The notes beneath the pieces were generated by a model. That model did not search any database. It had not been told where the DNA came from and worked only from the letters and a program-made list of their open reading frames with translations. The position numbers and the translations under genes were made by a program. A stretch of DNA of 64,000 nt from Minisyncoccia bacterium (GTDB taxonomy: Bacteria > Patescibacteriota > Minisyncoccia > Moranbacterales > GCA-2747515). Location: NCBI GenBank assembly GCA_041738235.1, contig JBGSQF010000013.1:63345-127344 (forward strand), given 5' to 3'. Below are positions 1,204 through 48,053 of this stretch, in pieces (the first letter of the stretch is position 1; each line of letters starts with the position of its first letter).

Positions 1204-1770
1204 GTGCAGATGAACCGTATGTCCCAACAACAAGAAGAATTCCTGGATGTCGTTGATAAAAACAATAACCCTACCGGAGAAGTGGTTTCAAGAAAGAGGG
1301 TGCATAGCGAGGGGCTTTGGCATCGGGTGGTGCATATGTATGTTTTTCGGAGAAGTAAGGACAGGGATGGTATTGAATTTTTAGTGCACCTCCGGTCACC
1401 ACATAAAGACCACAGTCCGAATAAGTGGGATACGCGCTTTGGAGGACACGTTCAGTCTGGAAAGACGCTTCACGAAAGCGTTGAGACTGAGCTCATGGAG
1501 GAGATAGGAGTGGACGCAAGGATATATGATCTTATTGAGGGAGACTGGATGAGTTGGGATGATTTCCCTAACCGAGAATTTCAGAAAGTATATTATCTTG
1601 AAGTGCAAGAAGAGGTATCAAATATGGTTTTTAACGATGGAGAGGTGCAGGAGGTAAGGTGGATGAGTACCGAGGAAATTCGCAGATCTATAAAGGTCGA
1701 TACTACAAAATGGACAACGAGTCTTGAATGGTTCGTTATAGTTTCGGAATATCTGCATTCAAAAATATAA
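1204..1770 (+). CDS. Nudix hydrolase (IDI-like subfamily)
   Basis: Nudix box variant GGHVQSGKTLHESVETELMEEIGV, plus a GLWHRVVH motif as in the isopentenyl-diphosphate isomerase-like Nudix clade. Confidence 0.75.
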   Translation: MQMNRMSQQQEEFLDVVDKNNNPTGEVVSRKRVHSEGLWHRVVHMYVFRRSKDRDGIEFLVHLRSPHKDHSPNKWDTRFGGHVQSGKTLHESVETELMEEIGVDARIYDLIEGDWMSWDDFPNREFQKVYYLEVQEEVSNMVFNDGEVQEVRWMSTEEIRRSIKVDTTKWTTSLEWFVIVSEYLHSKI

Positions 1771-2298: not shown

Positions 2299-2317
2299 AT
2301 AATCTATAAATAAAAGT

Positions 2318-2629: not shown

Positions 2630-2647
2630 AAAACTTTTCTGAAAAAG

Positions 2648-4318: not shown

Positions 4319-4322
4319 CGCT

Positions 4323-6960: not shown

Positions 6961-7320
6961 ATGATGGTACATTTTACATTTTTACGAGGAGTGGAGGTGG
7001 ATGCGGAGACTCGTGGGTACGTTGAAAAAAAGGTTCAGGCGGCAGGAAAGGCTTTGACGGAGGGTCTCGTGGAGGCAAACGTGGAGATCGGTCAGGATAA
7101 AAGAGAGCGATTTTCTGTGGAAGTAATGATTCGATCGGGAAAAGATGTTTTTCGCGCAAAAGAAGATAGAGCTGAAAGCACTGAAGAGGCAATTGATAAG
7201 GTTGAGGAGAAATTGCAAGTGCAGATACGGGAGAATCGTAAGAGAGTGGCGGATCTGGAGGAGCGGGGAGGTCGATCGGTTAAAAAAAGGTTAACGGTTG
7301 ATGAGGGAGCGAGGTTTTAG
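6961..7320 (+). CDS. hpf: Ribosome hibernation promoting factor / ribosomal subunit interface protein (HPF/RaiA)
   Basis: YfiA/HPF fold pattern: VEVDAETRGYVEKKV...ALTEGLVEANVEI......VEV...G. Confidence 0.8.
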   Translation: MMVHFTFLRGVEVDAETRGYVEKKVQAAGKALTEGLVEANVEIGQDKRERFSVEVMIRSGKDVFRAKEDRAESTEEAIDKVEEKLQVQIRENRKRVADLEERGGRSVKKRLTVDEGARF

Positions 7321-7365
7321 CGGATGTTTTGGAGGTCGTTGCGGGTGAGATGTATCAAAGTCTTT

Positions 7366-7393
7366 AAAAGGTGCCTTCTAAGGCACCTTTTTG
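7366..7393. terminator. Bidirectional rho-independent terminator between hpf (+) and the membrane protein gene (-)
   Basis: AAAGGTGCCTT...AAGGCACCTTTTT perfect hairpin flanked by A-runs and T-runs. Confidence 0.6.
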
Positions 7394-7477
7394 AGAAAAT
7401 AAAAAATCGCTTTGTGAGCGAAATATTTGGTTTGGGCGCGGGGGCGACGGATCGTTGATCCATCGCACCCCGCGGGG

Positions 7478-7930
7478 TTATGCGAGTAAGGCTCTGACGG
7501 GGACGGCCCAGAGGAGGGCAGAGCCTGCAAAGAACGCGATCGTGGAAAGCTCCTGCATCCACCGCCACTCCTTCTGAGCGCTTCCGACGGAAACGGGGAG
7601 GCCCATAAAGAACGTGATCACGGTGGCAGTGATCATGTTGACCGTGGTTCCCATCACCTCCCCGTTGTGGGTGAAGTGGAGTAGTAGGAGCCATGGGACC
7701 AAAAATCCGAAGAGAAATCTTGGAAGGGACCCCATGAATATTCCCGTGATCTCACCCCTGGTATCTTTGAGGGTAAGCCCCTTTTTTCCCGCAGTCTGGC
7801 TGTAAATCCAGGTGAGGATCCCTAGGCTTGCAGCTAGGGCCACGAATTGTAGAGCGTAGTTAAAGGTGACGATCAAAACAGCAATCGCCATCTCTTGGAA
7901 CAGTCCGAGGAGTTGGGACAGGATGTCCAT
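7478..7930 (-). CDS. Hypothetical membrane protein (4 predicted TM helices)
   Basis: Hydrophobic segments throughout; it converges on the hpf terminator. Confidence 0.5.
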   Translation of the reverse strand: MDILSQLLGLFQEMAIAVLIVTFNYALQFVALAASLGILTWIYSQTAGKKGLTLKDTRGEITGIFMGSLPRFLFGFLVPWLLLLHFTHNGEVMGTTVNMITATVITFFMGLPVSVGSAQKEWRWMQELSTIAFFAGSALLWAVPVRALLA

Positions 7931-8193
7931 TTTGAGATCCTTTATTTGGGTTTAACTGAGCCTCGGTCTAATGTCGAGGCACCGGTTCTTGTTAAAGAAC
8001 AGAATACTGTGGCATATATCCATAATCTTGTCAATAGTAGAGGCTTGTTGAAGGTTTACTTTAGGGGGAATGGTTGGTATTATGGTGATGGCTCACTCTA
8101 TCAAGAGTATGGGGAATCGTTTATGAAACCGTATTTTTCTAGTATGGGCAATGTTTGTTTTTTAAACAGGGTCATTAAATTATTTGGATCGCT

Positions 8194-10860
8194 ATGTTGA
8201 AATTTTTTACAAAAGTATTTGGTTCCAACGATCGTGAAGTGAACAAAATTCGTCCGATCGTTGAAAGGGTGAATGCTCTTGAGGAGGAAACAAAAAAACT
8301 CACTGATGAACAGCTTCAGGGTAAGACACAGGAGTTTCGAGATCGTATCAAAAAGGGTGAGACTTTGGATGACATTTTGCCGGAGGCGTTTGCGGTGGTC
8401 CGTGAAGGGGCACAGCGCGTGATCGGGCAACGACACTTCGATGTACAAATATTGGGAGGGATCGTACTTCATCGGGGGGCGATCGCTGAGATGAAGACGG
8501 GGGAAGGAAAGACGCTTACCTCAACGCTTGCGGTCTACTTGAATGCATTGACCGGGAAGGGTGTGCACGTAGTGACAGTGAACGATTATTTGGCTAAGCG
8601 TGACTGCAATTGGATGGGTTCGGTGTATCATTTTCTAGGACTCTCTACAGGGTGCATTTTACACGATGGAGGTTTTATCTATGAACCAAAGGTGATCGAT
8701 AAGAACGAGGTGAGCGTGGAACAGGAAAATCTGCGCACAGTAAGTCGTCGAGACGCATACGGCGCTGACGTTACCTACGGAACGAACAATGAATTTGGTT
8801 TTGACTATCTTCGTGACAATATGGTGAGCCGTGCTGAAGAGCGTGTGCAACGACCATTTTCTTTTGCTATCGTGGATGAGGTGGACTCGATATTGATCGA
8901 TGAGGCGCGTACCCCACTGATCATCAGTGCACCGGACAGTGAGTCAACGGATCTCTATAAGAAATTTTCTACGGCGGTACGACATTTGAAGGTTGATGCT
9001 GATTATACCGTTGATGAAAAAATGAAGGCGGTAGCACTGACCGATGAAGGGATTTCGCATGCCGAGAAAGTGTTGGGCATAGCGGATATGTACAGTCCGG
9101 GAAATATTCGTTATGTACATCACTTGGAACAGGCGCTTAAAGCAGAGGTGATCTTTCAGCGCGATCGGGATTATGTGGTAAAGGATGGACAGATCATAAT
9201 TGTGGATGACTTTACGGGAAGGCTCATGCCCGGACGTCGATATAGCGAAGGACTACATCAAGCATTGGAGGCAAAGGAAGGGGTGCAAGTGCAGAAAGAA
9301 TCAAAGACATTGGCTACGATCACATTCCAAAACTTCTTTCGTATGTACGAGAAGCTGTCTGGTATGACAGGGACGGCTCTCACAAGCGCTGAGGAATTTG
9401 CAAAGGTGTATAAATTGGATGTAGTAGAGATCCCAACTAATCAGCCGGCCATACGCAAAGATCTTCCGGATATTATTTACAAGACAGAAGAGGGAAAGTT
9501 CAAGGCGATCGCTGAGCGGATCAAAGAACTGAAAGAAAAGGGTCAGCCAGTGCTGGTGGGAACGATCGCCATCGAAAAGTCCGAATATCTTAGCGCACTT
9601 CTTATGCGTGAGGGAGTAAGTCATGAGGTTCTGAATGCCAAGAATCACGAACGTGAAGCGCAGATCATTTCTGATGCAGGACAAAAAGGATCGGTGACGA
9701 TCGCTACGAACATGGCAGGACGCGGAACCGATATCAAGCTTGGTGAAGGTGTTCGTGAGACCGGAGGGCTGTTTATTTTGGGAACAGAACGACATGAGGC
9801 ACGGCGCATCGATAATCAGTTACGAGGACGAGCCGGACGACAGGGGGACCCGGGTGTGTCGCAATTCTATATTTCTTTGGAAGATGAGCTTGTGCGACGA
9901 TTCGGTGGGGACAAGCTCAAAAATATGATGGACACATTGGGACTGCCTGACGATCAGCCGATCCAGAATGGGATCATCTCTAAGAGCATCGAAAGTGCGC
10001 AAACACGTATCGAGGGATTCAACTTTGACATCAGAAAACACGTCTTGGAATACGATGATGTCATGAACAAGCAGCGTGAAGTGGTATATAAGAAACGTTT
10101 GGAATTCGTTGAGAAATCGAACGTAAAACCGATCGTGTTGGATATGATGTCAGAGGAGGTGGAAACGATCGTGTCCGCGCGTTGTGTGGGAGAACCATAT
10201 GAGTGGGATATTGACGCACTGGTAGAAGACATGAATTTTGCGGGATTTTCCGAGAAAGAGAAAGAAGAGATCAATCGAATGCGGGAAGATACACATATGG
10301 ACGACGCGCACAAAAGGACGAAGGTTCATGAATATATTTTTGACCGCGTCAAGGCCGTATACAACAAGAAGGAAGAAAGTATCGGAGTTGAATCGGTGCG
10401 TCAAATGGAAAAGTATGTAGGTCTTCGAACGATCGATGAGATGTGGATGAATCATCTTGATGAAATGGACTATATGCGTCAAGGTATTGGACTTCGTGGG
10501 TATGCTCAACGCGATCCTCTCGTGGAGTATAAAAAAGAGGCCTTTGGGATGTTTGCGGGACTCATGGACACAGTGCGCAGAAATATCGTTTCGATCTTGA
10601 TGCGTATGGAGAAACAGGTTCAGGCACCTGTGCAACAGTTAGCTGTACAGCCGGCGCAGTTAGTGTATAGCGGTCCTGAAGGGCAACCAGCACAGTTCGG
10701 TGCGCTTGATCAGGGGTCTGGTCAGGTTGCTCAGGGGTCTGGAGAGAGTGCGAAGAAAGAGCAACCAAAACAAAAGCCGATCCATGCGGAACATATCGGT
10801 CGAAATGACCCTTGTCCATGCGGGTCAGGGAAGAAGTATAAGAAATGCCATGGGAAATAA
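8194..10860 (+). CDS. secA: Preprotein translocase ATPase SecA
   Basis: DEAD-like motor motifs ([25 protein letters not shown]) and the C-terminal zinc-binding tail [15 protein letters not shown]. Confidence 0.95.
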
Positions 10861-10861: not shown

Positions 10862-11308
10862 ATGAAGGCGGTTATTGAGATTCCCAGAGGGGATGATAGA
10901 AGGAGACATCTCAGTAGGGACAAGACTGGGTTCGTTGATCTGGGGCCTCTGAGAGATGTTATTCCTGTCAATGAGGGTATCATGCCGGTTCATTACGGAT
11001 ACATTCCGGGGACGCTGAATGTCAGTGATGGTGATGAGGTTGATGTTCTGGTCTTATCAGGTGCTGAATTGAGGGTTGGACAGGAAGTTGAAATCAAGCC
11101 AATTGCTATAATCATGCGAGAAGACGGGGATGATAAGGTTGTTGCCGTGGATGGATCCAAAAGAAACCTTGAGCAGTGGTGGGAGGATGTAGCAATATCT
11201 GAGAGAGAGCTGATAGAAAAATTCTTTAGCTATCACCACAAAATTCTTTCTGTTAAGGGTGCAGAGCTTGCGGTGCATTATATACATAAAAGACGCCAGT
11301 ACATATGA
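10862..11308 (+). CDS. ppa: Inorganic pyrophosphatase (family I)
   Basis: IEIPRGDDRRRHLSRDKTGFVDLGPLRDVIPVNEGIMPVHYGYIPGTLNVSDGDEVDVLV matches the PPase active-site region. The ATG sits 1 nt after the secA stop. Confidence 0.85.
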   Translation: MKAVIEIPRGDDRRRHLSRDKTGFVDLGPLRDVIPVNEGIMPVHYGYIPGTLNVSDGDEVDVLVLSGAELRVGQEVEIKPIAIIMREDGDDKVVAVDGSKRNLEQWWEDVAISERELIEKFFSYHHKILSVKGAELAVHYIHKRRQYI

Positions 11309-11637
11309 TCACGTACGATGACTTTGAAAAGGTGGATATACGAGTAGGGGAGATTATAAAAGTAGAAGAATTTCCTGAAGCGCGAAAGCCAGCTTATAAA
11401 CTTACGATCGATTTTGGCGAGCATATCGGTGTAAAAAGATCCTCTGTTCAGGTCACAAAGCGCTATACAAGAGATGATCTTGTGGGAAAGATGGTGGTCG
11501 GTGTAGTGAACTTTCCATCAAAACAGATCGGGCCGTTCATTTCAGAAGTGCTGACATTGGGTCTTCCCGATGAAAATGGGGATGTGGCGCTTCTAGTTCC
11601 GGAAAAGAGTGTCCCGAAAGGGGGAAGGGTTTTCTAA
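11305..11637 (+). CDS. tRNA-binding protein (CsaA/Trbp111/EMAP-like OB domain)
   Basis: FEKVDIRVGEIIKVEEFPEARKPAYKLTIDFGE...QVTKRY pattern typical of Trbp111/CsaA. Confidence 0.75.
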   Translation: MITYDDFEKVDIRVGEIIKVEEFPEARKPAYKLTIDFGEHIGVKRSSVQVTKRYTRDDLVGKMVVGVVNFPSKQIGPFISEVLTLGLPDENGDVALLVPEKSVPKGGRVF

Positions 11638-11652
11638 TTGAAAAAAGTTTCT

Positions 11653-12071
11653 ATGGCCGATATAAACAAAAGCGCACTACTTATCTTTAATGAAGATAAA
11701 ACGAAATTCCTTGTGACCAGAAAATCTCCGGAAAGTGTGACGACACAATGGATCATGCCGGGTGGTAGTATCGAGGGGGGGAGACGATAGAAGGATCACT
11801 TGTTCGAGAAATACAAGAAGAACTGTCATGTGGGATCGATGTTTTTAGTCTTGAATTTGTTGGGGAGTACGAAGCGCCGGCAGCAGGACAAACTCACAAG
11901 ATCGTGAATATACAGCTCTATACGGGGACGATAATTGGTGTGCCGGTAGCCAGTTCTGAGATTGTTGATCTTACTTGGTTGGGGCGCGAGGATGTCCATA
12001 ATCAAGAAGCAAGTGAGATCATTCGAAACCATATCATACCGGAACTTATACAACGAAAAATTCTCAAGTAA
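11653..12071 (+). pseudogene. Nudix hydrolase gene interrupted by a frameshift in a G7 homopolymer (11775-11781)
   Basis: The N-terminal frame gives MADINKSALLIFNEDKTKFLVTRKSPESVTTQWIMPGGSIEGG, then hits a stop. Adding one G yields GGSIEGGETIEGSLVREIQEELSCGI (a perfect Nudix box) and continues to the stop at 12069-12071. Confidence 0.6.
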
Positions 12072-12076
12072 CTATT

Positions 12077-12511
12077 ATGTGTATGACCAAGGGTAATGAC
12101 ATTATTCAGGTAGGCGCGGGTGCTGTTATCGTTCGGGACGGGAAGGTTCTTCTCGCTAAGCGAAAGGGTTCTCATGGGGAGGGTTCATACGGTACTGCTG
12201 GAGGACATGTGGAATTCGGTGAAACTCCTACCGAGACAGTCAAACGTGAAGCGATGGAAGAGTTAGGAATAGAGCTCAAGAATGTTCGTTTTGCTTCATG
12301 CACGAATATGCAGAAGTATGGAAAACACTACATTGACATTTCCTTCGTGGCAGAGATCTTGAGGGGTGAGCCGAAGATAATGGAGAGGGAGAAGATCGCA
12401 AGTGTGGATTGGTATGACCTGGAAGATCTTCCGGAACCACTCTTTGAACCTGTACGCATCGTGCTTGAAGCGATGAAGAGTGGAGAGCGGTATTTCGAGA
12501 TACATGAGTAA
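12077..12511 (+). CDS. Nudix hydrolase (MutT-like)
   Basis: Nudix box GGHVEFGETPTETVKREAMEELGI. Confidence 0.85.
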   Translation: MCMTKGNDIIQVGAGAVIVRDGKVLLAKRKGSHGEGSYGTAGGHVEFGETPTETVKREAMEELGIELKNVRFASCTNMQKYGKHYIDISFVAEILRGEPKIMEREKIASVDWYDLEDLPEPLFEPVRIVLEAMKSGERYFEIHE

Positions 12512-12965
12512 TATGGAAGAATTCAAACCAAAACCTGGACAAGTGGATTTTGCTCATATCCGGTGGGCACCGGTGATCAATTATGTCGTTCGATATAAGG
12601 GGAAGATGTTATTGGTCAGACGAAGTAAGGATCTGCACTTTTATCCGGGATATTGGAATGGAGTATCGGGATTTTTGGATGACAAAAAAAGCCTTAAGCA
12701 AAAAGTGGAGGAGGAGATTCGGGAGGAGTTGGGTATTTCTCGGACACATATCCGCAAGATCTCTTTTGGGGCGATATTTCACCAAGACGCACCCAAATAC
12801 AAAAAAACATGGATCGTCCATCCAGTGCTTGTAGAGGTGGATATCGACAAGATCCAACTGGATCGGGAGGGTGTTGAGTATCAATGGGGGACATTCTTGG
12901 AGATACAAAAGTTGAGACTTCTTCCGGGATTGAGCAGGGTTATTGATGAGATAGCTAATCTTTAA
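12504..12965 (+). CDS. Nudix hydrolase
   Basis: Nudix-fold pattern WNGVSGFLDDKKSLKQKVEEEIREELGI; the start may be ATG 12504 or 12513. Confidence 0.75.
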   Translation: MSNMEEFKPKPGQVDFAHIRWAPVINYVVRYKGKMLLVRRSKDLHFYPGYWNGVSGFLDDKKSLKQKVEEEIREELGISRTHIRKISFGAIFHQDAPKYKKTWIVHPVLVEVDIDKIQLDREGVEYQWGTFLEIQKLRLLPGLSRVIDEIANL

Positions 12966-12968
12966 ACG

Positions 12969-13337
12969 TTGCATATGCAAACTATCGTGGTGCTTGGTGC
13001 AAGTAATAACCCTGAGCGATACTCCAATAAGGCGGTCAAGATCCTTAAAGAGAAGGGTTTTCATGTTGTTCCGGTGCACCCATTGCTCAAAGAGGTCGAG
13101 GGCTTGTCGGTTTCGGCATCACTTGATGATGTAAAGGATCCGATCGACGTCTTGTCGGTGTATGTTCGACCCGAGGTATTTTTGTCGATGATCACATCGG
13201 TTGAAGAAGTGAAGCCGAAACGTGTTATACTAAATCCTGGGACCGAATCGCCAGCTATTAAAATGGCGCTGGAGCGATCCTGCATTCCGTATCATACGGG
13301 ATGTACGATCACTATGGCGAAAAACGGGTTACTTTAG
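12969..13337 (+). CDS. CoA-binding domain protein (YccU/YneT family)
   Basis: IVVLGASNNPERYSNKAVKILKEKGFHVVPVHP...IDVLSVYVRPE matches the CoA_binding_2 Rossmann signature. Confidence 0.75.
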   Translation: MHMQTIVVLGASNNPERYSNKAVKILKEKGFHVVPVHPLLKEVEGLSVSASLDDVKDPIDVLSVYVRPEVFLSMITSVEEVKPKRVILNPGTESPAIKMALERSCIPYHTGCTITMAKNGLL

Positions 13338-13856
13338 ATGGGCATGCAAGGAAATTCAGATGTTGTTATGAACAAACTATTTAAATTGTTGTGGGCGTAC
13401 AGACCTTCGTTCGAGGTTTCGGCGGGCTGTGTACTTGTATACCGATCGTCTTTCGGTGCTCGGTATTTGCTACTTCGTTATCCTCACGGACACTGGGACT
13501 TTGTAAAGGGTCACATCGAGAGGGGTGAGAACGAGCAAGAGGCGCTACTGCGTGAGATCGAGGAAGAAACGGGCATATCGCAGGTGGCACTCTCGGTAGT
13601 GCCTGGATTTCGGAAAGACACTTTTTATTTTTATCGCGCCAAGGGATCGGAGTATGAGAAACGTGTCCGTGTTGGTAAGAGAGGCATATTTGTTTTTAAG
13701 CGGGTGATCTACTTTCTTGTCGAAACGACGCAATCAAGTGTCTCGATATCTCACGAACATACGGATTCTGAATGGCTTTCTTATGAACAGGCGTTGGGTC
13801 GACTCACCTTTGCAAGAGCAAAAGAGATATTAAAAGGTGTTGGAGAAAAAAAGTAG
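13338..13856 (+). CDS. Nudix hydrolase (Ap4A-hydrolase-like)
   Basis: Nudix box HWDFVKGHIERGENEQEALLREIEEETGI. Confidence 0.8.
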   Translation: MGMQGNSDVVMNKLFKLLWAYRPSFEVSAGCVLVYRSSFGARYLLLRYPHGHWDFVKGHIERGENEQEALLREIEEETGISQVALSVVPGFRKDTFYFYRAKGSEYEKRVRVGKRGIFVFKRVIYFLVETTQSSVSISHEHTDSEWLSYEQALGRLTFARAKEILKGVGEKK

Positions 13857-13867
13857 AAAAGGAGCAT

Positions 13868-14353
13868 ATGCCACATATTCACACAAAGGAAGGGGAGATC
13901 GACTTTACAGCAGATGTTTTTGTAGTGCATAAGAATAGAGTGCTATTACGAATGCACGACAAGTACCGCATGTGGCTTATGGTTGGGGGGCACATTGAAA
14001 CACATGAGACACCAGAAGAAACAGCTGTTCGTGAGGCAAAAGAAGAAGTGGGACTTGATATAACGATCTGGTCTGGGGATCAAGAAACGGTTCCTGAATC
14101 TTTCTTAAATTCCCAGTTTCGATCGCTTGTTCCACCTATTTTTTTGAATGTTCATAAAATATCCGATACGCATAGACATATTTCGATGATCTATTTTGCG
14201 TTTTCCGATTCAGATGTTATTATAGAGCCAGAAACGCATGAAAAAAGCGGTGGATGTGTCTGGTTTAGTAAGGAGGAACTCCTTGCGGATAAGGATATCG
14301 ATGCACCGATAAAGTACTATGCGCTTAAGGCGTTGGAAGTTTTGGGGAGTTAA
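13868..14353 (+). CDS. Nudix hydrolase
   Basis: Nudix box VGGHIETHETPEETAVREAKEEVGL. Confidence 0.85.
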   Translation: MPHIHTKEGEIDFTADVFVVHKNRVLLRMHDKYRMWLMVGGHIETHETPEETAVREAKEEVGLDITIWSGDQETVPESFLNSQFRSLVPPIFLNVHKISDTHRHISMIYFAFSDSDVIIEPETHEKSGGCVWFSKEELLADKDIDAPIKYYALKALEVLGS

Positions 14354-14377
14354 TACTAAATTGTTGACGTAACTGCT

Positions 14378-15529
14378 ATGATCGGTACTATTGTCTTATT
14401 TTTGGTTATTTTGAGCATCTTGGTCTTTGTGCATGAGGCGGGGCATTTTATTACGGCGCGACGAAATGGTATGCGTGTGGATGAGTTTGGGTTTGGCTTT
14501 CCCCCGAGAGTGGGGGGGTTTGTAAAGAACGAAAAAACTGGAAAATGGGATTTTGTGTGGGGTAATCCTGACAAAGAGTTCGCCAATACGATCTATTCTG
14601 TGAATTGGATCCCCTTGGGAGGATTTGTTCGCATCAAGGGAGAAGATGGTTCTGGTGCGACCGATCCAGATAGTTTTGCCTCCAAATCAACATGGAAGAG
14701 GTTAAAGGTTCTGGCAGCGGGAGTAGTCATGAACTTTGTTCTGGCGTGGGTACTCTTCACTATTATTGCCATGGTCGGTTTTCCAAGAGAGGTGGACACC
14801 TCTAAGGGCATACCGGCAGGATCGTCAGTACAGATATTGAACGTTGCTGATGATACGCCGGCAAAATCCATGGGACTTCAACTGGGAGATACGGTACGTG
14901 GATTTTCTGAAGGGGGCAATATGATACCAGCAAAGTCGGTGGATACTGTAAGGAATTATATCTTGGCACATAAGGGTACATCTATTACGCTATTGATCTC
15001 AAGAGGGAAAGAGCAACTTACGTTAACAGGAACGCCTCGTGTTGAGTATAGCCCAGATCAAGGATCACTTGGTATATCTCTGGCACAAGTAGAGGTAGTA
15101 AAAACACCCTTTTGGAAAGCGCCGTGGGAAGGACTTAAACAGGTGGGCATTCTTATTTGGTTGATCCTGTCATCTTTGTGGGGATTGCTTATTGCTTTGC
15201 TTACGGGGGCTGGAGTTGCTGGGGACGTTTCTGGTCCAGTGGGTATTGCATATATGACCAAGCAAGTATCAGATCTCGGATTCCTGTACCTCTTACAGTT
15301 TATGGCCATTCTCAGCGTCAACCTCGGAGTGCTCAATATTTTGCCAATTCCAGCACTTGATGGGGGAAGGATACTATTTGTTCTCATTGAGATGATCAAA
15401 GGTTCTCCTGTGAGTCAAAAAGCAGAACAATGGATCCATTCGACTGGTTTTATAGCATTGCTCCTTTTGATGCTTGTGGTGACCGTATATGATTTTAGTC
15501 GATTCCATATATTTGATAGGTTTTTCTAG
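14378..15529 (+). CDS. rseP: RIP site-2 zinc metalloprotease RseP with PDZ domain
   Basis: HEAGHF (HExxH) in TM1, a central PDZ-like segment, and C-terminal LNILPIPALDGG. Confidence 0.85.
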   Translation: MIGTIVLFLVILSILVFVHEAGHFITARRNGMRVDEFGFGFPPRVGGFVKNEKTGKWDFVWGNPDKEFANTIYSVNWIPLGGFVRIKGEDGSGATDPDSFASKSTWKRLKVLAAGVVMNFVLAWVLFTIIAMVGFPREVDTSKGIPAGSSVQILNVADDTPAKSMGLQLGDTVRGFSEGGNMIPAKSVDTVRNYILAHKGTSITLLISRGKEQLTLTGTPRVEYSPDQGSLGISLAQVEVVKTPFWKAPWEGLKQVGILIWLILSSLWGLLIALLTGAGVAGDVSGPVGIAYMTKQVSDLGFLYLLQFMAILSVNLGVLNILPIPALDGGRILFVLIEMIKGSPVSQKAEQWIHSTGFIALLLLMLVVTVYDFSRFHIFDRFF

Positions 15530-15609
15530 TGGGTCTGTAGATCTCACAAGGTCAAGGAGGATGAGTGGAATGTTTGTATATCTCTAACTTTTTAATCTTT
15601 GCTGTTTCT

Positions 15610-16878
15610 ATGCGCCAATCAGAGCTTTTTACTAAAACGAGAAAGGATTTTCCAAAGGATGAAACAAGCTGTAACGCTCAGCTTCTTATACGTGCTGGGT
15701 ATGTGTATAAGGAAATGGCGGGAGTGTATGCTTATCTTCCACTGGGACTCCGTGTACTGCATAATATAAAGAAGATTATACGGGAAGAGATGAACTCTAT
15801 AGGAGGGCAGGAGATCATTATGACCTCGCTACAGCGCAAGGATCTATGGGAAAAGACGGATCGCTGGAGTGATGACAAAGTGGATGTTTGGTTCAAGTCG
15901 AAACTCAAAAATGGTGTGGATGTTGGTTTTGGTTGGTCGCACGAAGAGCAGATCACAGAGATGATGCATTACTATGTTTCTGGGTTTCGTGATCTTCCTG
16001 TTTCGGTATATCAATTTCAAACGAAACTTCGTAACGAGCTTCGTGCCAAAAGTGGTATTATGCGTGGACGTGAGTTTTTGATGAAGGATCTGTATTCGTA
16101 TTCACGAAATGATAAAGAACATGACATTTTTTATCAACAGGTTATTGATGCGTATCTACGAATTTTTAGGCGTGTTGGACTTGGAGATGACACTTTTCTT
16201 ACTTTTGCTTCCGGGGGTGCATTTACACAGTTTAGTCATGAATTTCAGACGATCACAGACGCTGGAGAGGATATCGTATATCTTGATCGAAAAAGAAAAC
16301 TTGCAATAAATAAAGAGGTACTGACTGATAAAGTGCTGGAGCAACTGGATGTAAAAAGGGAGGATCTCGAAGAGGTAAAGACTTCTGAGGTGGGCAACAT
16401 ATTCAGTTTTGGGGGAAAGAAATGTGAGCAGTTGGGGCTTTATTTTATGGATGAACGGGGAGTGAAACAGCCTGTTGTTCTTGGATCGTACGGTATCGGA
16501 ATTACTCGTCTTATGGGGGTGATCGTAGAAAAGTTTCATGACGAAAGGGGTATTATTTGGCCTGAGACAGTAGCGCCTTATCAGGTGCATCTTCTCAAGA
16601 TCACCTCGGGGGGCAAGCAGTCAACGAGTACGGATAAGCAGGCGGAAGAGGTGTACCAAAAACTGAAACGTTCAAATATATGGGTTCTCTATGATGATCG
16701 CGAAGGAGTGAGCGCGGGAGAAAAATTTGCTGATGCCGACCTTTTAGGTTTGCCTACCCGTATTGTGGTAAGTGATCGATCTCTTGAAGCGGGAGGTGTT
16801 GAAGTAAAGAGGCGAACAGAAAAGGAGTCCAAGATAATGTCGGTTGAGGATTTTATCAAACAATTTGCCAATAACTAG
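15610..16878 (+). CDS. proS: Prolyl-tRNA synthetase (short bacterial form lacking the editing insertion)
   Basis: MRQSELFTKTRKDFPKDETSCNAQLLIRAGYV is the ProS N-terminal signature; class II motifs 2/3 and a C-terminal anticodon-binding domain follow. Confidence 0.85.
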   Translation: MRQSELFTKTRKDFPKDETSCNAQLLIRAGYVYKEMAGVYAYLPLGLRVLHNIKKIIREEMNSIGGQEIIMTSLQRKDLWEKTDRWSDDKVDVWFKSKLKNGVDVGFGWSHEEQITEMMHYYVSGFRDLPVSVYQFQTKLRNELRAKSGIMRGREFLMKDLYSYSRNDKEHDIFYQQVIDAYLRIFRRVGLGDDTFLTFASGGAFTQFSHEFQTITDAGEDIVYLDRKRKLAINKEVLTDKVLEQLDVKREDLEEVKTSEVGNIFSFGGKKCEQLGLYFMDERGVKQPVVLGSYGIGITRLMGVIVEKFHDERGIIWPETVAPYQVHLLKITSGGKQSTSTDKQAEEVYQKLKRSNIWVLYDDREGVSAGEKFADADLLGLPTRIVVSDRSLEAGGVEVKRRTEKESKIMSVEDFIKQFANN

Positions 16879-17838: not shown

Positions 17839-18012
17839 AGAATTATATTGAGTGATTTATATTTTTAATAGTAGTCGTTCTTGGCTGAATAATCAAGCAG
17901 TTAAAAAGGGTTGGTCTTCCTATTTTTCTTGATTTTTTGGGTATTTTTCGCTATGGTGGGAGCGATGGTCATCTGAAGGGTGGCTCCGTATCTACAAACC
18001 GTGAGGTGTGCC

Positions 18013-18861
18013 ATGAGAAATTTCCGTTTGATGCTTGCAGCTCGAGTGAGCAAGGGATTTAGTGTCGTTGTCGGGCTAGATACTGAGTTTGATCGAATCC
18101 CTAAGCGATCGAACATTTGGGGGTGGGTCTACCTCCTTCTCGTGCTCATGGGCCTTCGTTGGATCGTGATCTATTGGTTCAATAGGCGTATTGTAGATGC
18201 TACGAGTGATAGTATTTGCGCCTACAAGATCAATAATGCTTTCTACGCGATGGAGGGAATGGGAGGTGTTATTGCATTGCTACTCACCGTCCGGTACATT
18301 CTTCGGGTTGCACCGGATATCCCGATACTTCTCGATGCCAAGTATGGGGATACTCGTAACACCAATGTTCGTAACGCGAGAACAGCGTTCGATGTCCTGG
18401 GTGTGGATGCGGTGACGGTGCTTCCGTACTTCGGGGGTGAGTCGCTTGAGCCGTTTCTTGAGCGGAGTGACAAGGGAGTATTCGTGACCTGTCATACGGC
18501 ATTTCCAGGGTCACAAGATTTTCAGGACAGGGTGGGTTATGAGAACGAGCCCCTCTATCGGGTTGTCGCACAACACGTCACCAGGCAATGGAATAAGAAT
18601 GGAAATTGTGCGGTGGTTGTCGGTTCGCCACAACCGTACGACTTGAGCAGGATTCGCGATGTGGTGGGCGAGATCCCAATTCTTGTTTTGGGTGAGGGTG
18701 CTAGGGCTGAGCATCTGGCGCAAACCGTCCCAGCGGGCGGATCAAAGGCTCTCTTTGGTCAATCCCGAGGCATCATCTACGCCTCGAGCGGTCCGGATTT
18801 TCCGGAAGCTGCTCATCGGGCAGTTGGAAAGCTCCAGACCCTCATTGATCAATATCGATAA
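18013..18861 (+). CDS. pyrF: Orotidine-5'-phosphate decarboxylase, type 2
   Basis: VVVGLDTEF near the N-terminus, ILLDAKYGDTRNT (catalytic Lys/Asp), and a length of about 280 aa. Confidence 0.7.
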   Translation: MRNFRLMLAARVSKGFSVVVGLDTEFDRIPKRSNIWGWVYLLLVLMGLRWIVIYWFNRRIVDATSDSICAYKINNAFYAMEGMGGVIALLLTVRYILRVAPDIPILLDAKYGDTRNTNVRNARTAFDVLGVDAVTVLPYFGGESLEPFLERSDKGVFVTCHTAFPGSQDFQDRVGYENEPLYRVVAQHVTRQWNKNGNCAVVVGSPQPYDLSRIRDVVGEIPILVLGEGARAEHLAQTVPAGGSKALFGQSRGIIYASSGPDFPEAAHRAVGKLQTLIDQYR

Positions 18862-18957
18862 GGGAGGACGGCTTATAGAACATGTGGGTTTGATCGAGGG
18901 GTTGCCCAGCGGGCCACCCCTCTTTCCTTTTTTAGAAAAAAGAGATACCTTGATGAT

Positions 18958-20169
18958 ATGAAGAATCAAGAAAATATTTTTTCTCAACCGCTGGCGGATC
19001 GGGTAAGACCGGGGCGACTTGATGATTTTATGGGACAGAAGAATGCCGTTGGCCCGGGGTCTTTTTTGCGTTCTGCCATTGAGACGGACGTTGTTCCATC
19101 GCTGATCTTGTGGGGCCCGCCGGGGACGGGAAAAACGACGCTTGCTCGTATTGTAGCCAACGAAACAAAGGCAAAGTTTGTTCAACTGTCGGCTACTTTA
19201 GCAGGAAAGAAAGATCTGAAAGCTGTTGTGGTTGAAGCAGAAGGATTGGTGCGGTCAGGAACACGAACGATCGTTTTTATCGATGAGATCCATCGTTGGA
19301 ACAAGGCGCAACAAGATGCACTACTTCCCAGTGTGGAAGATGGAACGGTGATCCTTATCGGCGCCACAACGGAAAATCCGAGTTTTCAAGTTAACGCTGC
19401 TTTGCTTTCTCGGTGCCGAGTCATTGTGCTCGATCGGTTGGAGGCTGAAGATATTGAAGAGATACTTTCGCGTGCACTCAAAGACAAAAAGACCGGGCTG
19501 GGAAATGTGTCCGTGAAGAAGGGGAAAGGCGTTTTGAGATTTCTTGCAAACCTCTCCAATGGAGATGCTCGGTTTGCTTTGAATGTTCTGGAAACGGCTG
19601 TGACCCAAAATACAAATCTTACAAAAGAGCTCCTCAAAAAAGTGCTTCAAAAGTCACATCTTTTGTACGACAAGAACGGTGAAGAACACTATAACATTAT
19701 TTCGGCTTTGCATAAATCGATGCGTGGAGGGGATGCTGATGCAGCGGTCTATTGGGTGGTGAGGATGCTTGAAGGTGGTGAGGATCCATTGTATATCGCG
19801 AGGCGTTTGGTACGGTTTGCGAGTGAGGACATTGGCTTGGCGAATAATACCGCTGTGCTTTTGGCCAATGCGGTCTTTGAGGTGTGCCATAAACTGGGCA
19901 TGCCGGAGTGTGGAGTGCATTTAGCACACTGTGCGATCTATCTTGCCAAGTCGCCCAAGAGTGTTTCTGCTTATGATGCCTATGAATTAGCTCGAAAGGA
20001 CGTTTTACAATACGGGAATCTTCCAATTCCTCTGCACATACGAAACGCTCCAACAAAACTTATGAAGGATCTGGGATATGGGAGGGGATATAAGTATACT
20101 CCGAAGGAAGAGAGTGCGGGACAAGAATATCTGCCGGGGCAACTTAAAGGGAGAAAATATGTGAAGTAG
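18958..20169 (+). CDS. rarA: Replication-associated recombination protein A (AAA+ ATPase RarA/MgsA)
   Basis: LADRVRPGRLDDFMGQ, Walker A GPPGTGKTT, Walker B IVFIDEIHRWNKAQQDALLP, and a C-terminal MgsA helical domain. Confidence 0.9.
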   Translation: MKNQENIFSQPLADRVRPGRLDDFMGQKNAVGPGSFLRSAIETDVVPSLILWGPPGTGKTTLARIVANETKAKFVQLSATLAGKKDLKAVVVEAEGLVRSGTRTIVFIDEIHRWNKAQQDALLPSVEDGTVILIGATTENPSFQVNAALLSRCRVIVLDRLEAEDIEEILSRALKDKKTGLGNVSVKKGKGVLRFLANLSNGDARFALNVLETAVTQNTNLTKELLKKVLQKSHLLYDKNGEEHYNIISALHKSMRGGDADAAVYWVVRMLEGGEDPLYIARRLVRFASEDIGLANNTAVLLANAVFEVCHKLGMPECGVHLAHCAIYLAKSPKSVSAYDAYELARKDVLQYGNLPIPLHIRNAPTKLMKDLGYGRGYKYTPKEESAGQEYLPGQLKGRKYVK

Positions 20170-20202
20170 GAAATATGAGTTAATGATGCTAAGAAGTTTA
20201 CG

Positions 20203-20964
20203 ATGGGCATAGGTTTTATGAACATGCAATTTATACCAATTAAAACGAGAACGATGATGCCACCGAAAGATGATATTTTTTCGGTATTAGACGAATCACT
20301 GATGGAGATCCGCGAGAGGGATATTGTGATGATCACTTGCAAGGTGTTGTCGATCCATCAGGGAAGATGTGTAAAGAAAGATGGGCAGGTGTCGCGTGTA
20401 GGGTTGGGAAAACAAGAGTCTGATTGGTATATCAATTATGGAAATGATAGAGACCATGGTCATATTCCTACGATCAAAAAGTATGCGTTTCTTGGTTCTG
20501 CAGGTGTGGATGCGAGTAATGGGAATGGGTATTTTATTCTTCCTCCGGAAAATGTTAGTGATCTTTGTCAGAAAGTGTGGGCTTATCTTCGAAAGAAATT
20601 TAATTTGAAGGAACTGGGAGTTATGGCTGTGGACAGTCACACATTGCCGTTTCGATATGGTGTGACAGGTGTGACATTGGGACTCTTTGGACTTGATCCA
20701 ATTCGTCGATATAGGTATGCGCGGGACATATTTGGAGGAAAATTCAAAGAAACAGTGAACATTGCTGATGCGCTCGCAGCCACCACGACGCTTCTATTTG
20801 GTGAAGGAGATGAAAAAACCCCGATACTTATTGCTCGGGGTATTGAAGGAGTGGAGTTTGTCCAACGGGAATCATTTTCGTCTTTGTGTGTTCCAGAGGA
20901 AAAGGATATCTTTTGGCCAATATTTCAAGTGTTTCGGAAGGGGGGGAGGCGAGAGGAGAGGTAG
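20203..20964 (+). CDS. CofE/F420-0:gamma-glutamyl ligase-like protein (PF01996 homolog)
   Basis: VMITCKVLSIHQGR...LGSAGVDASNGNGYFILPPENVSD matches the CofE family AGIDxSN / LP motifs. Confidence 0.6.
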   Translation: MGIGFMNMQFIPIKTRTMMPPKDDIFSVLDESLMEIRERDIVMITCKVLSIHQGRCVKKDGQVSRVGLGKQESDWYINYGNDRDHGHIPTIKKYAFLGSAGVDASNGNGYFILPPENVSDLCQKVWAYLRKKFNLKELGVMAVDSHTLPFRYGVTGVTLGLFGLDPIRRYRYARDIFGGKFKETVNIADALAATTTLLFGEGDEKTPILIARGIEGVEFVQRESFSSLCVPEEKDIFWPIFQVFRKGGRREER

Positions 20965-20969
20965 TTGTA

Positions 20970-21197
20970 TCATGCTTTTTGTTCATCATTTTTTTCTGCT
21001 GTGGCTCTGTCGGCACCTGAACCGTTTTTCCAACGTCCCAGTTCTTTCTTTTGGGTTCCTTGTGCGGGTTGGGGCGTTGTCTCCGAGGCAGCGGGATAGT
21101 TCTTGCTATCGGCAGCAAGGAGTTCTGCTTCGCGTATCTCTTGTTCGATCTCTTCTCTTCTTTCGGGAGTGATATCGCCTAGTGTTTCTTTTGCCAT
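20970..21197 (-). CDS. Small acidic hypothetical protein
   Basis: AGGAGG RBS 13 nt upstream of the ATG (MAKETLGDITPERREEIEQ...); the stop faces the end of the CofE-like gene. Confidence 0.4.
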   Translation of the reverse strand: MAKETLGDITPERREEIEQEIREAELLAADSKNYPAASETTPQPAQGTQKKELGRWKNGSGADRATAEKNDEQKA

Positions 21198-21345
21198 ACG
21201 TAGCCACCTACCTCCTGGATCTGTCATAGGATTCTGTTACAGATTATAACTTTAGTATACCATATACAATATGATACAATGAAAAAGAATATCACTGAAA
21301 TGTAGAAAATTTAGCTAAAATCCTTATGACCTAGTCGATAAAGTA

Positions 21346-22251: not shown

Positions 22252-22255
22252 AAAT

Positions 22256-22705
22256 ATGAAAAAAGGAGTTTTTTCTCGGGTTGGTGCTATCGTTGTTTTC
22301 TCATGTGCGGCGATCGGAACTCTTTATTCAGGAATCTTGGCGTATGGGAAATTGACGACGGGTGTATGCGTTCTTGGGTCCTCATGTCCTCTTCTTTTTG
22401 GGATACCCGTATGCGTATTTGGTTTCTTTGGATTTTTGAGCGTGCTGCTTCTGTTCGGTGCGTCATACTATACTAATCGGTGGAGATCAAAAGGGGTGGT
22501 AGTCGAACTTTTCTGGATATCTTTGGCAGGAACCTTGTTTGCGCTCTACTTTTTGATTCAGGAGCTATTTTTTATTCCGGGTGCGAGTAGTGGTTTTTCA
22601 AATATTGGTCTCGGGTACCCAAGTTGCTTATATGGTCTGGTACTATTTGGAATAATATTCTTGTTCTCTCGATATGCCCTTATACATTCGGAAGATAATC
22701 TGTAA
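22256..22705 (+). CDS. VKOR-like (vitamin K epoxide reductase family) membrane protein with a degenerate CxxC
   Basis: The loop GVCVLGSSCPLLFGIPVCVFG matches the VKOR Cys-pair / FGIPxA motif. The usual TM4 CxxC is reduced to a single Cys (YPSCLYG). Confidence 0.4.
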   Translation: MKKGVFSRVGAIVVFSCAAIGTLYSGILAYGKLTTGVCVLGSSCPLLFGIPVCVFGFFGFLSVLLLFGASYYTNRWRSKGVVVELFWISLAGTLFALYFLIQELFFIPGASSGFSNIGLGYPSCLYGLVLFGIIFLFSRYALIHSEDNL

Positions 22706-22716
22706 CAAATACTGCT

Positions 22717-24126: not shown

Positions 24127-24136
24127 ACTATTTTGT

Positions 24137-44858: not shown

Positions 44859-45362
44859 ATGAAACTTCTTCAAGAACTTCGAGAATCAGATCTGGGAATA
44901 GAGCCGAAAGAAAGCGCGGGTTTTTTGGAGGTGCGTAATGCGGTGCGAGCAGTGGTGTTTGATGCGGAGGGTCGGGTGGGCGTGGCGCATGTGGCCGATG
45001 GAAATTATTGGAAGATCCCCGGAGGGGGCGTTGAGAAGGGAGAGAGTTTTGTGCAAGCCCTGGAAAGAGAGCTTATGGAGGAGGCGGGAGTGAAGGCAAC
45101 CGTGGAGGGAGAGATCGGGGTAATCATCGAGCATCGCGATCAATGGAAGCAACTGCAAATTTCATACTGCTATCGGGCGCGTGTAGAGGGGGAAAAGCAG
45201 GTCCCAAAATTTGATGAGACAGAACGGGAAGAAGGATTTTCGTTTCACTGGTTACCCTACGGGGAAGCACTGCAAAAGTTTCGAGGAAACACCTCGCTAA
45301 CCTATGAATCACAATTTATGCAAACGCGGGATGGGATCTTTTTAAAGAAGGTCCCTATATAG
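44859..45362 (+). CDS. Nudix hydrolase
   Basis: Nudix box GGGVEKGESFVQALERELMEEAGV. Confidence 0.8.
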   Translation: MKLLQELRESDLGIEPKESAGFLEVRNAVRAVVFDAEGRVGVAHVADGNYWKIPGGGVEKGESFVQALERELMEEAGVKATVEGEIGVIIEHRDQWKQLQISYCYRARVEGEKQVPKFDETEREEGFSFHWLPYGEALQKFRGNTSLTYESQFMQTRDGIFLKKVPI

Positions 45363-47035: not shown

Positions 47036-47695
47036 ATGAAGAAAATCAAGGGAGTGTTATTTGATTTTGATGGGGTGATCCACAATACCTTTCATACGCA
47101 CCTCAGAAATATACGTGAGTTTTCAGGGTATCCTCTTACGGAACAGGAATATCGTGATATGCATAATGGGAATTTTCATGGGCATTCTCTTGATGGTTTA
47201 AAGGATATGGATTGGTTGGCCTACCGAAATTTTGTTCGAAAACATTTTGGAGAGCTTGTGATCGATCCAGAGGTGCAAAACTCTCTCAGGGAACTTGCGA
47301 GGGAACGGGAATTGTTTATTGTGAGTTCTGGTGGAGAGAGTGTTATACGAGAATATCTTGAGAGGAATGGTGTTTTGGAGATCTTTCGGACAGTGCTGGG
47401 AAGGGAATTCCATGCGTCCAAAGTGGATAAGTTCAAGTATATTTTTCAGCATTATGGATTTGGAAGTCGTGAAAGCGTGTTTGTGACGGATACTTTGGGG
47501 GATATTTTGGAGGCGAACGTTGTAGGACTCGAAACGATCGCCGTGGATTTTGGTTTTCATTCGAGAGAAAAGTTGCAAGAAGGAAATCCTTATTCGATCG
47601 TTTCTGACTTTAAAGACATAATTACTGTCGTAGAATCCTATGAATCAAGAGAGCAGACCGAGCGTTGGGATCGGAGTGATCATTCTCCGAGATAA
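47036..47695 (+). CDS. HAD-superfamily hydrolase
   Basis: Motif I VLFDFDGVI; motifs II/III present (S.G....D). Confidence 0.75.
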   Translation: MKKIKGVLFDFDGVIHNTFHTHLRNIREFSGYPLTEQEYRDMHNGNFHGHSLDGLKDMDWLAYRNFVRKHFGELVIDPEVQNSLRELARERELFIVSSGGESVIREYLERNGVLEIFRTVLGREFHASKVDKFKYIFQHYGFGSRESVFVTDTLGDILEANVVGLETIAVDFGFHSREKLQEGNPYSIVSDFKDIITVVESYESREQTERWDRSDHSPR

Positions 47696-48053
47696 TAAGG
47701 TGCTTATGGGACTTCGGAAGGGACCTCATGGGAAAGGGGCGTGGTCCTTTCCCGGAGGACACTTGGAGCATGGAGAGACCCCGGAGGAGTGTGCCGTTCG
47801 TGAAACGTTGGAGGAAACAGGCGTGCATATAGGAACGGTTCAACGGGGACCATTTACGAATGATATTTTTGAGGAAAGTGGGAAACATTACGTAACGCTC
47901 TATATGATCGCTTTTGGCATACAGGGAGATCCGAAGGTAATGGAACCGGAAAAGTGGGATCGATGGGAGTGGTTTCCGTGGGACACAATGCCTGAGAACC
48001 TATTCCTTCCGATACAGCATCTTTTGGAGTTGGGGTATCATCCAAAGAATTGA
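47640..48053 (+). CDS. Nudix hydrolase (MutT-like)
   Basis: Nudix box GGHLEHGETPEECAVRETLEETGV; it overlaps the HAD gene by 56 nt. Confidence 0.85.
   Translation: MNQESRPSVGIGVIILRDNKVLMGLRKGPHGKGAWSFPGGHLEHGETPEECAVRETLEETGVHIGTVQRGPFTNDIFEESGKHYVTLYMIAFGIQGDPKVMEPEKWDRWEWFPWDTMPENLFLPIQHLLELGYHPKN

Follow-up and report, generated by a model that had tools for sequence, protein, structure and literature searches.

This study concerns a cluster of Nudix hydrolase genes that lies downstream of secA in a Minisyncoccia bacterium (Patescibacteriota; GenBank assembly GCA_041738235.1). The window, that is, the whole stretch of DNA analysed, comprises 64,000 nt of contig JBGSQF010000013.1 (positions 63,345 to 127,344), and all coordinates given here refer to it. 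Five Nudix genes, called N2 to N6, occupy positions 11653 to 14353 of the + strand, with a gene for a CoA-binding-fold protein (CoAbd) inserted between N4 and N5. Of the five Nudix genes, four are intact and one is frameshifted, and they belong to different, ancient subfamilies. The organisms named for homologs place the window in a Patescibacteria bacterium allied to Moranbacteria/Paceibacteria.

Layout of the array and its surroundings

The array opens with N2 (11653..12074), a frameshifted, MutT-like Nudix gene that matches PF00293 after repair of the frame. N3 (12077..12511), of the NUDT15/AtNUDX1 type (PF00293, 75 bits), is overlapped by 8 nt by N4 (12504..12965), which has a variant Nudix box (PF00293, 41 bits). 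CoAbd (12969..13337) encodes a YccU/YneT-like CoA_binding_2 protein (PF13380) and is spaced 3 nt from N4 and 0 nt from N5 (13338..13856), a PF00293 gene of the asymmetrical diadenosine tetraphosphate (Ap4A) hydrolase type, as judged by its similarity to NUDT2. The array closes with N6 (13868..14353; PF00293, 56 bits). Three further Nudix genes lie outside it on the same strand, namely the YfcD/DR0079-like N1 (1204..1770; 52 bits against PF00293), N7 (44859..45362; 64 bits) and N8 (47640..48053; NUDT15/NUDX1 type, 82 bits).

The array is embedded in a string of housekeeping genes, all on the + strand. The upstream end of a conserved hpf-secA backbone is formed by hpf, encoding a ribosome hibernation factor (6961..7320; PF02482, 47 bits), and secA (8194..10860), an open reading frame (ORF) of 888 aa, is the gene that anchors the Nudix cluster in position. 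One nucleotide past the secA stop starts ppa (10862..11308; PF00719, 59.7 bits), which encodes a short family I inorganic pyrophosphatase (PPase) with the sequence DGDEVDV, which fits the family I signature. The ppa stop is overlapped by 4 nt by a csaA-like gene for a protein with a tRNA-binding domain (11305..11637), which scores 176 bits against NF007495 (tRNA-binding protein; cut-off 117) and 156.5 bits against TIGR02222 ('export-related chaperone CsaA'; cut-off 119.65). CsaA is a partner of SecA in Bacillus, and because the TIGR02222 cut-off is passed as well, the csaA-like gene is more plausibly a companion of secA than of the Nudix genes. Downstream of N6 follow the site-2 protease gene rseP (14378..15529; PF02163, 184 bits), the downstream backbone gene, and the prolyl-tRNA synthetase gene proS (15565..16878; PF00587 and PF03129), with which the packed string ends. 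The pyrophosphatase, tRNA-binding and CoA-binding neighbours named in the original prediction are all confirmed.

The order on this strand is hpf-(873 nt)-secA-ppa-csaA-N2 (pseudogene)-N3-N4-CoAbd-N5-N6-rseP-proS; all intergenic distances from secA through proS fall between -8 and +35 nt, and the first Nudix gene begins 793 nt past secA. Ahead of secA, a promoter-like sequence at 8055-8083 has an extended -10 element. The scan for such sites gave none between the Nudix genes and one in the N6-rseP gap (14364-14391), and the sole terminator-like match on the + strand sits within the N6 coding sequence. The 873 nt separating hpf from secA carry ORFs on the opposite strand only (7317-7694 and 7478-7930), and a Falkowbacteria locus described below (L096) also has an opposite-strand gene there. 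GC skew across the window is persistently positive at about +0.2 (0.07-0.30 per 2 kb), and the cumulative skew climbs monotonically; the window sits on one replichore and has an extreme gene-strand bias.

Eight divergent Nudix proteins

All eight Nudix proteins score 41.2-82.4 bits against the PF00293 NUDIX profile (gathering cut-off 21.1; N2 scored after frame repair), and a six-frame scan of the 64-kb window with a hidden Markov model (HMM) built from the eight returned the same genes and no further ones, in agreement with the number originally predicted. Against the pattern G-x5-E-x7-R-E-U-x-E-E-x-G-U, the Nudix box is canonical in N3, N5, N6, N7 and N8. The two divergent boxes foreseen in the original prediction are indeed present: that of N1 reads GHVQSGKTLHESVETELMEEIGV, with E changed to K and R to T, and that of N4 reads GFLDDKKSLKQKVEEEIREELGI, with E changed to K and R to E. 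Both variants retain the three glutamates of the RE-x2-EE core. The box of N2 is canonical only with one G added to the DNA, S taking the place of the last G of the pattern.

Pairwise identity among the paralogs is 17-29%, except for N3 and N8 (42.6% over 122 aa), a pair of which one member is in the array and the other 35 kb away. Recent tandem duplication can be rejected on these values, every array member being closer to homologs in other organisms, and the earlier proposal of substrate diversification rather than recent duplication agrees with the low identities and the different nearest relatives. The clustering goes beyond chance, with a permutation p of 0.002 for at least 5 Nudix genes in a 6-gene run, given 8 Nudix genes among 64. 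What had been described as five contiguous Nudix genes in 2.7 kb is thus a genuine cluster, but one of four intact genes and one broken gene, the ORF at 11653 being frameshifted.

All eight proteins fall short of every NCBIfam equivalog cut-off. Against MutT (TIGR00586 / NF008044; 97.9 bits required) the best score is 46.9 bits for N2, followed by 45.5 for N3 and 42.9 for N8; the best score against NudC (NF001299) is 52.8 bits for N3, below the cut-off of 158; and against isopentenyl-diphosphate isomerase (IDI) type 1 (NF002995 / TIGR02150; 127 bits) N1 scores 56.3 and N4 28 bits. A regular expression for the CoA-pyrophosphatase (NudL/NUDT7-type) motif upstream of the box, with the PROSITE-style pattern [LM][LIVMF][LF]TxR[SA]x3[RK]x3Gx3FPGG, matched 0/8 proteins, and the NADH-pyrophosphatase motif SQPWPFPxS downstream of the box was likewise found in none of the eight. 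The comparison with characterised subfamilies that had been proposed earlier yields different affinities for the proteins, but no assignment at equivalog level.

A frameshift in N2

The reading frame of N2 breaks within the Nudix box at a run of seven G (G7; 11775-11781) and meets a stop at 11788-11790, while the remainder runs on in the -1 frame to 12074. Both pieces (11638-11790 and 11769-12071) match the Nudix HMM separately. Eight G in place of seven would restore ...GGSIEGGETIEGSLVREIQEEL... and give a protein of 139 aa, which scores 49.5 bits against PF00293 and has MutT (TIGR00586) as its best NCBIfam match, below the cut-off as stated above. Intact N2 orthologs from Uhrbacteria and other Patescibacteria have 137-143 aa, are 55-69% identical to the repaired protein and align ungapped across the break. 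A separately assembled Logan contig (L013; 100% identity over 451 nt) has the identical G7, and the six other G7/C7 runs of the window all lie in intact ORFs, which together make a sequencing error unlikely. The run of L013 and that of another contig of the species, L002, are consecutively numbered (SRR28170473, SRR28170474) and perhaps come from the same study and population.

The break might instead be functional, through programmed -1 slippage or phase variation on G_GGG_GGG, and the G7 run is formally an X_XXY_YYZ heptamer in the 0 frame on which a -1 slip yields an ortholog-like protein. The 0-frame stop lies 6 nt past the run, the 98 codons downstream are still stop-free, and the second assembly shares the run, although by its run number it may stem from the same population. 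However, no stable, stimulatory RNA structure was found downstream of the G7 run, where the minimum free energy is weaker than that of shuffled sequences (z = +1.48), and all 20 N2 homologs detected are single, intact and unshifted ORFs of 137-148 aa. Programmed frameshifting is rejected on these grounds, and a functional frameshift of any kind is very unlikely. Given the intact orthologs, the G7 in a second assembly, the intact ORFs around the other G7/C7 runs and the lack of an RNA structure, N2 is most likely a recent pseudogene.

Subfamily affinities

The nearest characterised or solved relative, as far as sequence comparison can tell, differs for every array member. N3 matches PDB entry 4kyx, AtNUDX1 and NUDT15 with E values of 1e-21 to 1e-19. 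The best match of N6 is PDB 3f6a (E = 6e-24), its closest solved relative, a NUDIX family hydrolase of unassigned function. N5 matches human NUDT2 (E = 3.6e-13) and the Ap4A hydrolase of Caenorhabditis elegans (4.9e-12), and several sources call its homologs bis(5'-nucleosyl)-tetraphosphatase. Its Tyr97 aligns with the tyrosine of NUDT2 (...GFKRELNY...) that confers specificity for ApnA (PMC5389931), a residue conserved about 17 positions past the box in this enzyme type. Both the similarity to NUDT2 and this tyrosine point to N5 as a probable hydrolase of the asymmetrical Ap4A type, with an insertion of 18 residues relative to the human enzyme.

N4 is an orphan among structures, the closest solved one being 3grn (E = 1e-5). 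Its family is strikingly conserved and counts more than 1000 homologs, about 60-65% identical, from Parcubacteria, Colwellbacteria, Falkowbacteria and others, and the variant box G-x5-[K/R]-x7-x-E-x2-E-E-x-G is shared throughout. Many of these homologs are named isopentenyl-diphosphate isomerase type 1 by JGI, which is also the top NCBIfam match of N1. An AlphaFold2 model of N4 (pLDDT 87.5) has a generic Nudix fold, and its Foldseek matches include NudC, NudI, 3grn, YfcD and NUDT15 at TM scores of 0.6-0.73. Despite the confident model, these matches are too evenly spread for a structure-based call of the substrate. The N4 family was found in 0 of 2.9 million viral contigs.

CoAbd scores 91.3 bits against PF13380 (cut-off 22.8) over profile positions 2-113 of 116, and its solved homologs 1y81, 1iuk and 3ff4 are matched with E values of 1e-16 to 1e-14. 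It is thus a stand-alone protein of the CoA-binding fold, with putative binding of CoA.

The Nudix proteins outside the array have looser affinities. N1 matches DR0079 (7e-8) and YfcD (4e-7) in the PDB. Within 1204-5510 it adjoins a GrpB-domain gene (PF04229) and lies 2.5 kb from ispG/gcpE (PF04551). A link of N1 to isoprenoids is not supported, the IDI cut-offs not being reached despite weak IDI/YfcD-like NCBIfam matches. N7 has only weak PDB matches, pointing to no specific subfamily, and N8 overlaps the preceding gene, for a HAD hydrolase, by 56 nt. Both belong to a second run of genes for nucleic-acid and nucleotide maintenance at 43290-49402, which holds an AlkD-like gene for DNA alkylation repair (PF08713), a Cu-oxidase_4 gene of the YfiH/PgeF type (PF02578), N7, a gene for a 115-aa protein without an assigned function, a beta-CASP/RNase J-like nuclease gene, the HAD hydrolase gene, N8 and serS. 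With the RNase J-like gene close by, N7 might conceivably act in the manner of RppH, and the HAD-N8 pair might conceivably process NTP via NMP to nucleoside.

Turnover and erosion in close relatives

Related loci are numbered here with the prefix L. The complete array is common only to the contigs of the same species (L001, L002 and L013). In L007, whose SecA is 93% and whose N5 is 86% identical to those of the window, the order is secA-ppa-44-aa ORF-GNAT-CoAbd-N5-N6 fragment-rseP. The ppa product is 72% identical, the 44-aa ORF is a possible csaA remnant (a weak 13-aa match, E = 0.077), N2 to N4 are missing, and N6 is reduced to residues 78-161, without the Nudix box. L008 (N5 about 70%, with 71% in one comparison and 69% in another; proS 84%) has two genes of the OMP-decarboxylase family on the opposite strand, followed by N5-rseP-proS, and L003 (N5 70%) has murC-CoAbd-N5. 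In L007 and L008, rseP comes after N6 or N5. A conserved five-gene operon is rejected by this synteny around N5 orthologs, since L007, L008, L003 and L005 all differ. N5 is the member kept most persistently among close relatives, with orthologs in L003, L005, L007, L008, L009 and L014.

Beyond close relatives, 80 metagenome loci of the wider N5 family were surveyed. The anchor was the only Nudix gene in 78/80, with 3 extra Nudix genes in 679 kb, and a CoA-binding neighbour was present in 0/80; L005, L008 and L009 also have none. The array is accordingly not a general trait of the N5 (Ap4A hydrolase) family. It is lineage-specific, and the CoAbd-N5 pairing is limited to close relatives in which N5 is at least 70% identical.

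A second strain, L001, has 99.4% nucleotide identity to the window, with 19 single-nucleotide polymorphisms (SNPs). All 5 SNPs in N4 (296-754 in L001) are non-synonymous, against 4/14 in CoAbd, N5 and rseP together (one-sided hypergeometric p about 0.011). Two changes in the N4 of the window, C27Y and W121R, hit positions that are invariant in the family, and L001 keeps C27 and W121. The pattern points to relaxed constraint on N4, or to a shift in its function, in the strain of the window; the protein is otherwise very conserved in Patescibacteria. With the N2 frameshift, the N6 remnant and possible csaA remnant of L007, and the changes at invariant residues of N4, the Nudix cluster is eroding in the lineage of the window.

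Recurrence downstream of secA in distant Patescibacteria

A different picture emerges from distant loci, which were reached through three Nudix anchors (N5, the N2 ortholog and the N4 ortholog). SecA is 67% identical to that of the window in L014, 52% in L094, 50% in L095 and 52% in L096. L014, found with N5, has an N8-type gene directly upstream of secA and an MTH1-type gene and N5 on its other side. L094, found with the N2 ortholog, reads ribosome recycling factor (RRF)-rseP-hpf-secA-GNAT-S41-169-aa ORF (no Pfam match)-N2 type-ASCH-double Nudix-...-ileS. L095, found with the N4 ortholog, reads hpf-secA-three small genes-Nudix-N1 type-N4 type-secD-secF. L096, a Falkowbacteria locus found with the same anchor, reads RRF-rseP-hpf-(opposite-strand gene)-secA-N4 type (62% identical)-methyltransferase-ppa (60%)-DUF1653-Nudix-Nudix (N7-like)-65-aa ORF-Ham1/ITPase-ileS. 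The hpf-secA backbone is therefore also seen in L094, L095 and L096, in the last with the opposite-strand gene in between. The double Nudix gene of L094 (8765-9694) follows the ASCH/DUF3850 gene and encodes a 309-aa protein with an MTH1-like N-terminal half (GRFNGFGGK) and an N7-like C-terminal half.

In all four loci the Nudix genes lie on the same strand, 2 nt to 2.1 kb past secA. All three look-ups with orthologs of N2 or N4 led to loci no more than 4 kb from secA, for which we would put the chance, as a rough estimate that was not computed, at about 1% per look-up for a random gene in a genome of roughly 1 Mb. Six of the seven Nudix subfamilies of the window, including the N1, N7 and N8 types, recur in such a cluster or beside secA elsewhere: N7-like genes are in the clusters of L094 and L096, and an N1-type gene is in that of L095. 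The exception is N6, of which only the remnant in L007 was seen. Ham1 is a non-Nudix house-cleaning NTP pyrophosphatase, and together with the orthologous ppa in L096 it lends the neighbourhood functional coherence.

Comparison with known systems

Escherichia coli K-12 has the order secM-secA-mutT on one strand, with a gap of 59 nt between secA and mutT; the same gene order is given in PMC5493296. The window resembles this arrangement in having Nudix house-cleaning genes past secA on the same strand, among them the MutT-like N2. It differs in that five Nudix genes of different subfamilies stand in place of one, ppa and csaA are interposed, a PF13380 gene lies within the array, secM is absent, and the MutT-like member is frameshifted and scores less than half of what the MutT model demands. 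The array looks like an expanded form of an old secA-Nudix linkage, and it may share ancestry with the E. coli linkage. The statement that this is not a standard described operon accordingly needs qualification: the five-gene array is not a conserved operon, but secA-mutT adjacency is classical in E. coli.

MutT, NUDT15/AtNUDX1 and the NUDT2/RppH-like enzymes share with the array members the fold and the Nudix box or close variants of it, whereas the families of N4 and N6 have no characterised member. In model organisms, house-cleaning Nudix genes are scattered, unlike the contiguous genes of the window. Deinococcus radiodurans and the Bacillus cereus group have many diversified Nudix paralogs, which are read as extended house-cleaning capacity. 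Those expansions are found in large genomes, whereas the 64 kb of the window, from a reduced genome, hold 8 Nudix genes, and to our knowledge contiguous secA-linked arrays have not been reported from either group. Ham1/RdgB ITPase and PPase are further partners in sanitation: L096 joins Nudix genes with ppa and Ham1, whereas the window joins Nudix genes with an orthologous ppa, and tblastn with the L096 protein found no Ham1 homolog in the window. The Nudix superfamily and the secA-mutT linkage are already known; in the literature searched, neither multi-subfamily Nudix clusters nor Nudix expansions were described for Candidate Phyla Radiation (CPR)/Patescibacteria, nor were tandem prokaryotic Nudix genes.

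Other features of the window

Between 50000 and 54000, the GC content is 0.56-0.57, compared with about 0.44 elsewhere, and long ORFs occur on both strands without any rRNA. The product of one of them (51395-53269, +) has 624 aa, a LysM domain and ends rich in Ala, Pro, Thr and Ser, and the high-GC stretch may have been horizontally acquired. At 21346-22251, a single ORF fuses the DNA-binding domain of 6-O-methylguanine-DNA methyltransferase (PF01035) to a Sua5/YciO/YrdC domain (PF01300), an unusual combination. Further genes for the care of nucleotides and DNA in the surrounding region (17980-25738) encode an OMP-decarboxylase-family protein, MgsA/RarA, a LOG/'lysine decarboxylase'-family (SLOG) protein and an AP endonuclease 2 TIM-barrel protein. 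Three tRNA genes lie at 26392-27452.

Discussion

The explanation that we consider probable is a cluster conserved in position and fluid in composition, made up of independent pyrophosphohydrolases that sanitise the nucleotide pool and are co-expressed with a PPase, and now eroding in this lineage. The genes would be transcribed together from the promoter region of secA, and each Nudix enzyme would act on its own class of nucleoside-diphosphate-X compounds. Ap4A and other Np4N would be the substrates that N5 cleaves, N3 would split (d)NTPs that are oxidised or non-canonical into (d)NMP and inorganic pyrophosphate (PPi), and N2 would formerly have been an 8-oxo-(d)GTPase. NTP pyrophosphohydrolases release PPi, which PPase removes; the co-encoded PPase might thus clear the PPi released, a functional coupling suggested by adjacency. 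The cluster would represent an expanded secA-Nudix linkage, at a site past hpf-secA that recurs in distant Patescibacteria while its members turn over. The array is not a fixed operon for a multi-step pathway, and nothing links it to CoA or NAD. As for the clustered sanitising battery with ppa that was originally proposed, multi-Nudix clusters past secA in four distant Patescibacteria, and ppa, N4 and Ham1 in L096, speak for it, but the particular five-gene array is not conserved.

Several observations weigh against this explanation. All distant loci were found via Nudix homologs rather than from an unbiased secA anchor. Around an RseP anchor, 0/3 loci from Moraniibacteriota/Paceibacterota (38-51% identical) had a Nudix gene within 10 kb, and in none of the three was secA nearby; the genome collection used there left out the genome of the window itself. 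N5 orthologs often lie elsewhere, by murC in L003, by a GH1 gene in L005 and after alaS in L009. Since the + strand carries nearly all genes of the window, with little space between them, tight packing by itself is weak evidence for an operon. The assignments of all eight enzymes are by similarity only, since no equivalog cut-off was reached. The region downstream of secA also gathers genes for GNAT, methyltransferase, ASCH and peptidase S41 proteins, and such unrelated small genes would suit a neutral insertion hotspot equally well.

Such a hotspot is the main rival. It would take the site past secA as a place where small dispensable genes accrete, Nudix genes being merely the commonest, without selection for co-location or co-expression. 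What lies between secA and the housekeeping gene that follows indeed differs from lineage to lineage (GNAT, methyltransferases, ASCH, peptidase S41, DUF1653 and small ORFs), the array members are not one another's closest relatives, and the decay of N2 here and of N6, and possibly csaA, in L007 is what accretion would leave behind. It is harder to reconcile with neutrality that orthologs of ppa and N4 (60-62% identical) were kept near secA although SecA itself is only 52% identical, that Ham1/ITPase, an analogous non-Nudix house-cleaning enzyme, joins the cluster of L096, that Nudix genes predominate past secA in five independent lineages, and that E. coli has the same secA-mutT linkage. We regard neutral accretion as the less probable account, though one to be taken seriously. 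A module for CoA and NAD, as the original prediction had suggested, appears unlikely. Such a module would process CoA, dephospho-CoA (dpCoA) or derivatives of NAD, or would decap RNAs that carry NAD, dpCoA or Np4A. Enzymes of the Ap4A-hydrolase type such as RppH do act on RNA 5' ends, RppH is among the weak PDB matches of N5, and the PF13380 gene is wedged tightly between N4 and N5, a CoAbd-N5 pair that recurs in L003 and L007. For the N4 model, Foldseek ranks catalytic domains of NudC first, among them complexes with NAD and dpCoA, at TM scores of 0.60-0.64 that barely set them apart from other Nudix folds. Yet CoA-pyrophosphatase and NADH-pyrophosphatase motifs are missing from all eight proteins, NudC scores stay far below the cut-off, no CoA-binding gene adjoins the N4 orthologs of L095 and L096 or the N5 homologs of the wider loci, so that such a neighbour is confined to close relatives; stand-alone PF13380 proteins are themselves without known function. 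An anti-phage defence or counter-defence island of Nudix effectors deserves hardly any credence. All eight proteins match the PADLOC candidate PDC-S07 (22-60 bits) and the region is variable among relatives, but PDC-S07 is a 135-position model that these proteins match as any Nudix domain would, no other defence family was found in the proteins scanned (the eight Nudix proteins, CoAbd and CsaA), the neighbours secA, ppa, rseP and proS are core housekeeping genes, the orthologs of N2, N4 and N5 are widespread and vertically conserved, and the N4 family was not seen in the viral contigs. Membership in a defence system was set aside, the PADLOC match being a generic one.

The favoured reading of a position-conserved sanitation cluster can be extended, tentatively, to a wider proposal. 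An ancient 'nucleotide-hygiene' neighbourhood of Patescibacteria may lie past hpf-secA, with several Nudix subfamilies, PPase and sometimes Ham1/ITPase. It would be continuous with the proteobacterial secA-mutT linkage and kept for constitutive, co-expressed sanitation of scavenged nucleotides, and it would include the N4 orphan family with a new substrate. This broader proposal is possible rather than probable.

CPR/Patescibacteria have tiny genomes and are mostly without de novo nucleotide synthesis, for which reason the genes that they retain are informative. The five-gene array of the window is a lineage-specific, partly decaying instance, and its individual importance is modest. A recurrent Nudix cluster past secA also gives comparative context to the long-known, unexplained secA-mutT adjacency of E. 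coli. If the reading is true, a secA-linked cluster of Nudix, PPase and ITPase genes would point to maintained sanitation of scavenged nucleotide pools, and would offer a genomic handle for predicting the substrates of orphan Nudix enzymes, especially of the conserved N4 type. The most useful leads are this conserved orphan family and the secA-linked 'nucleotide-hygiene' neighbourhood.

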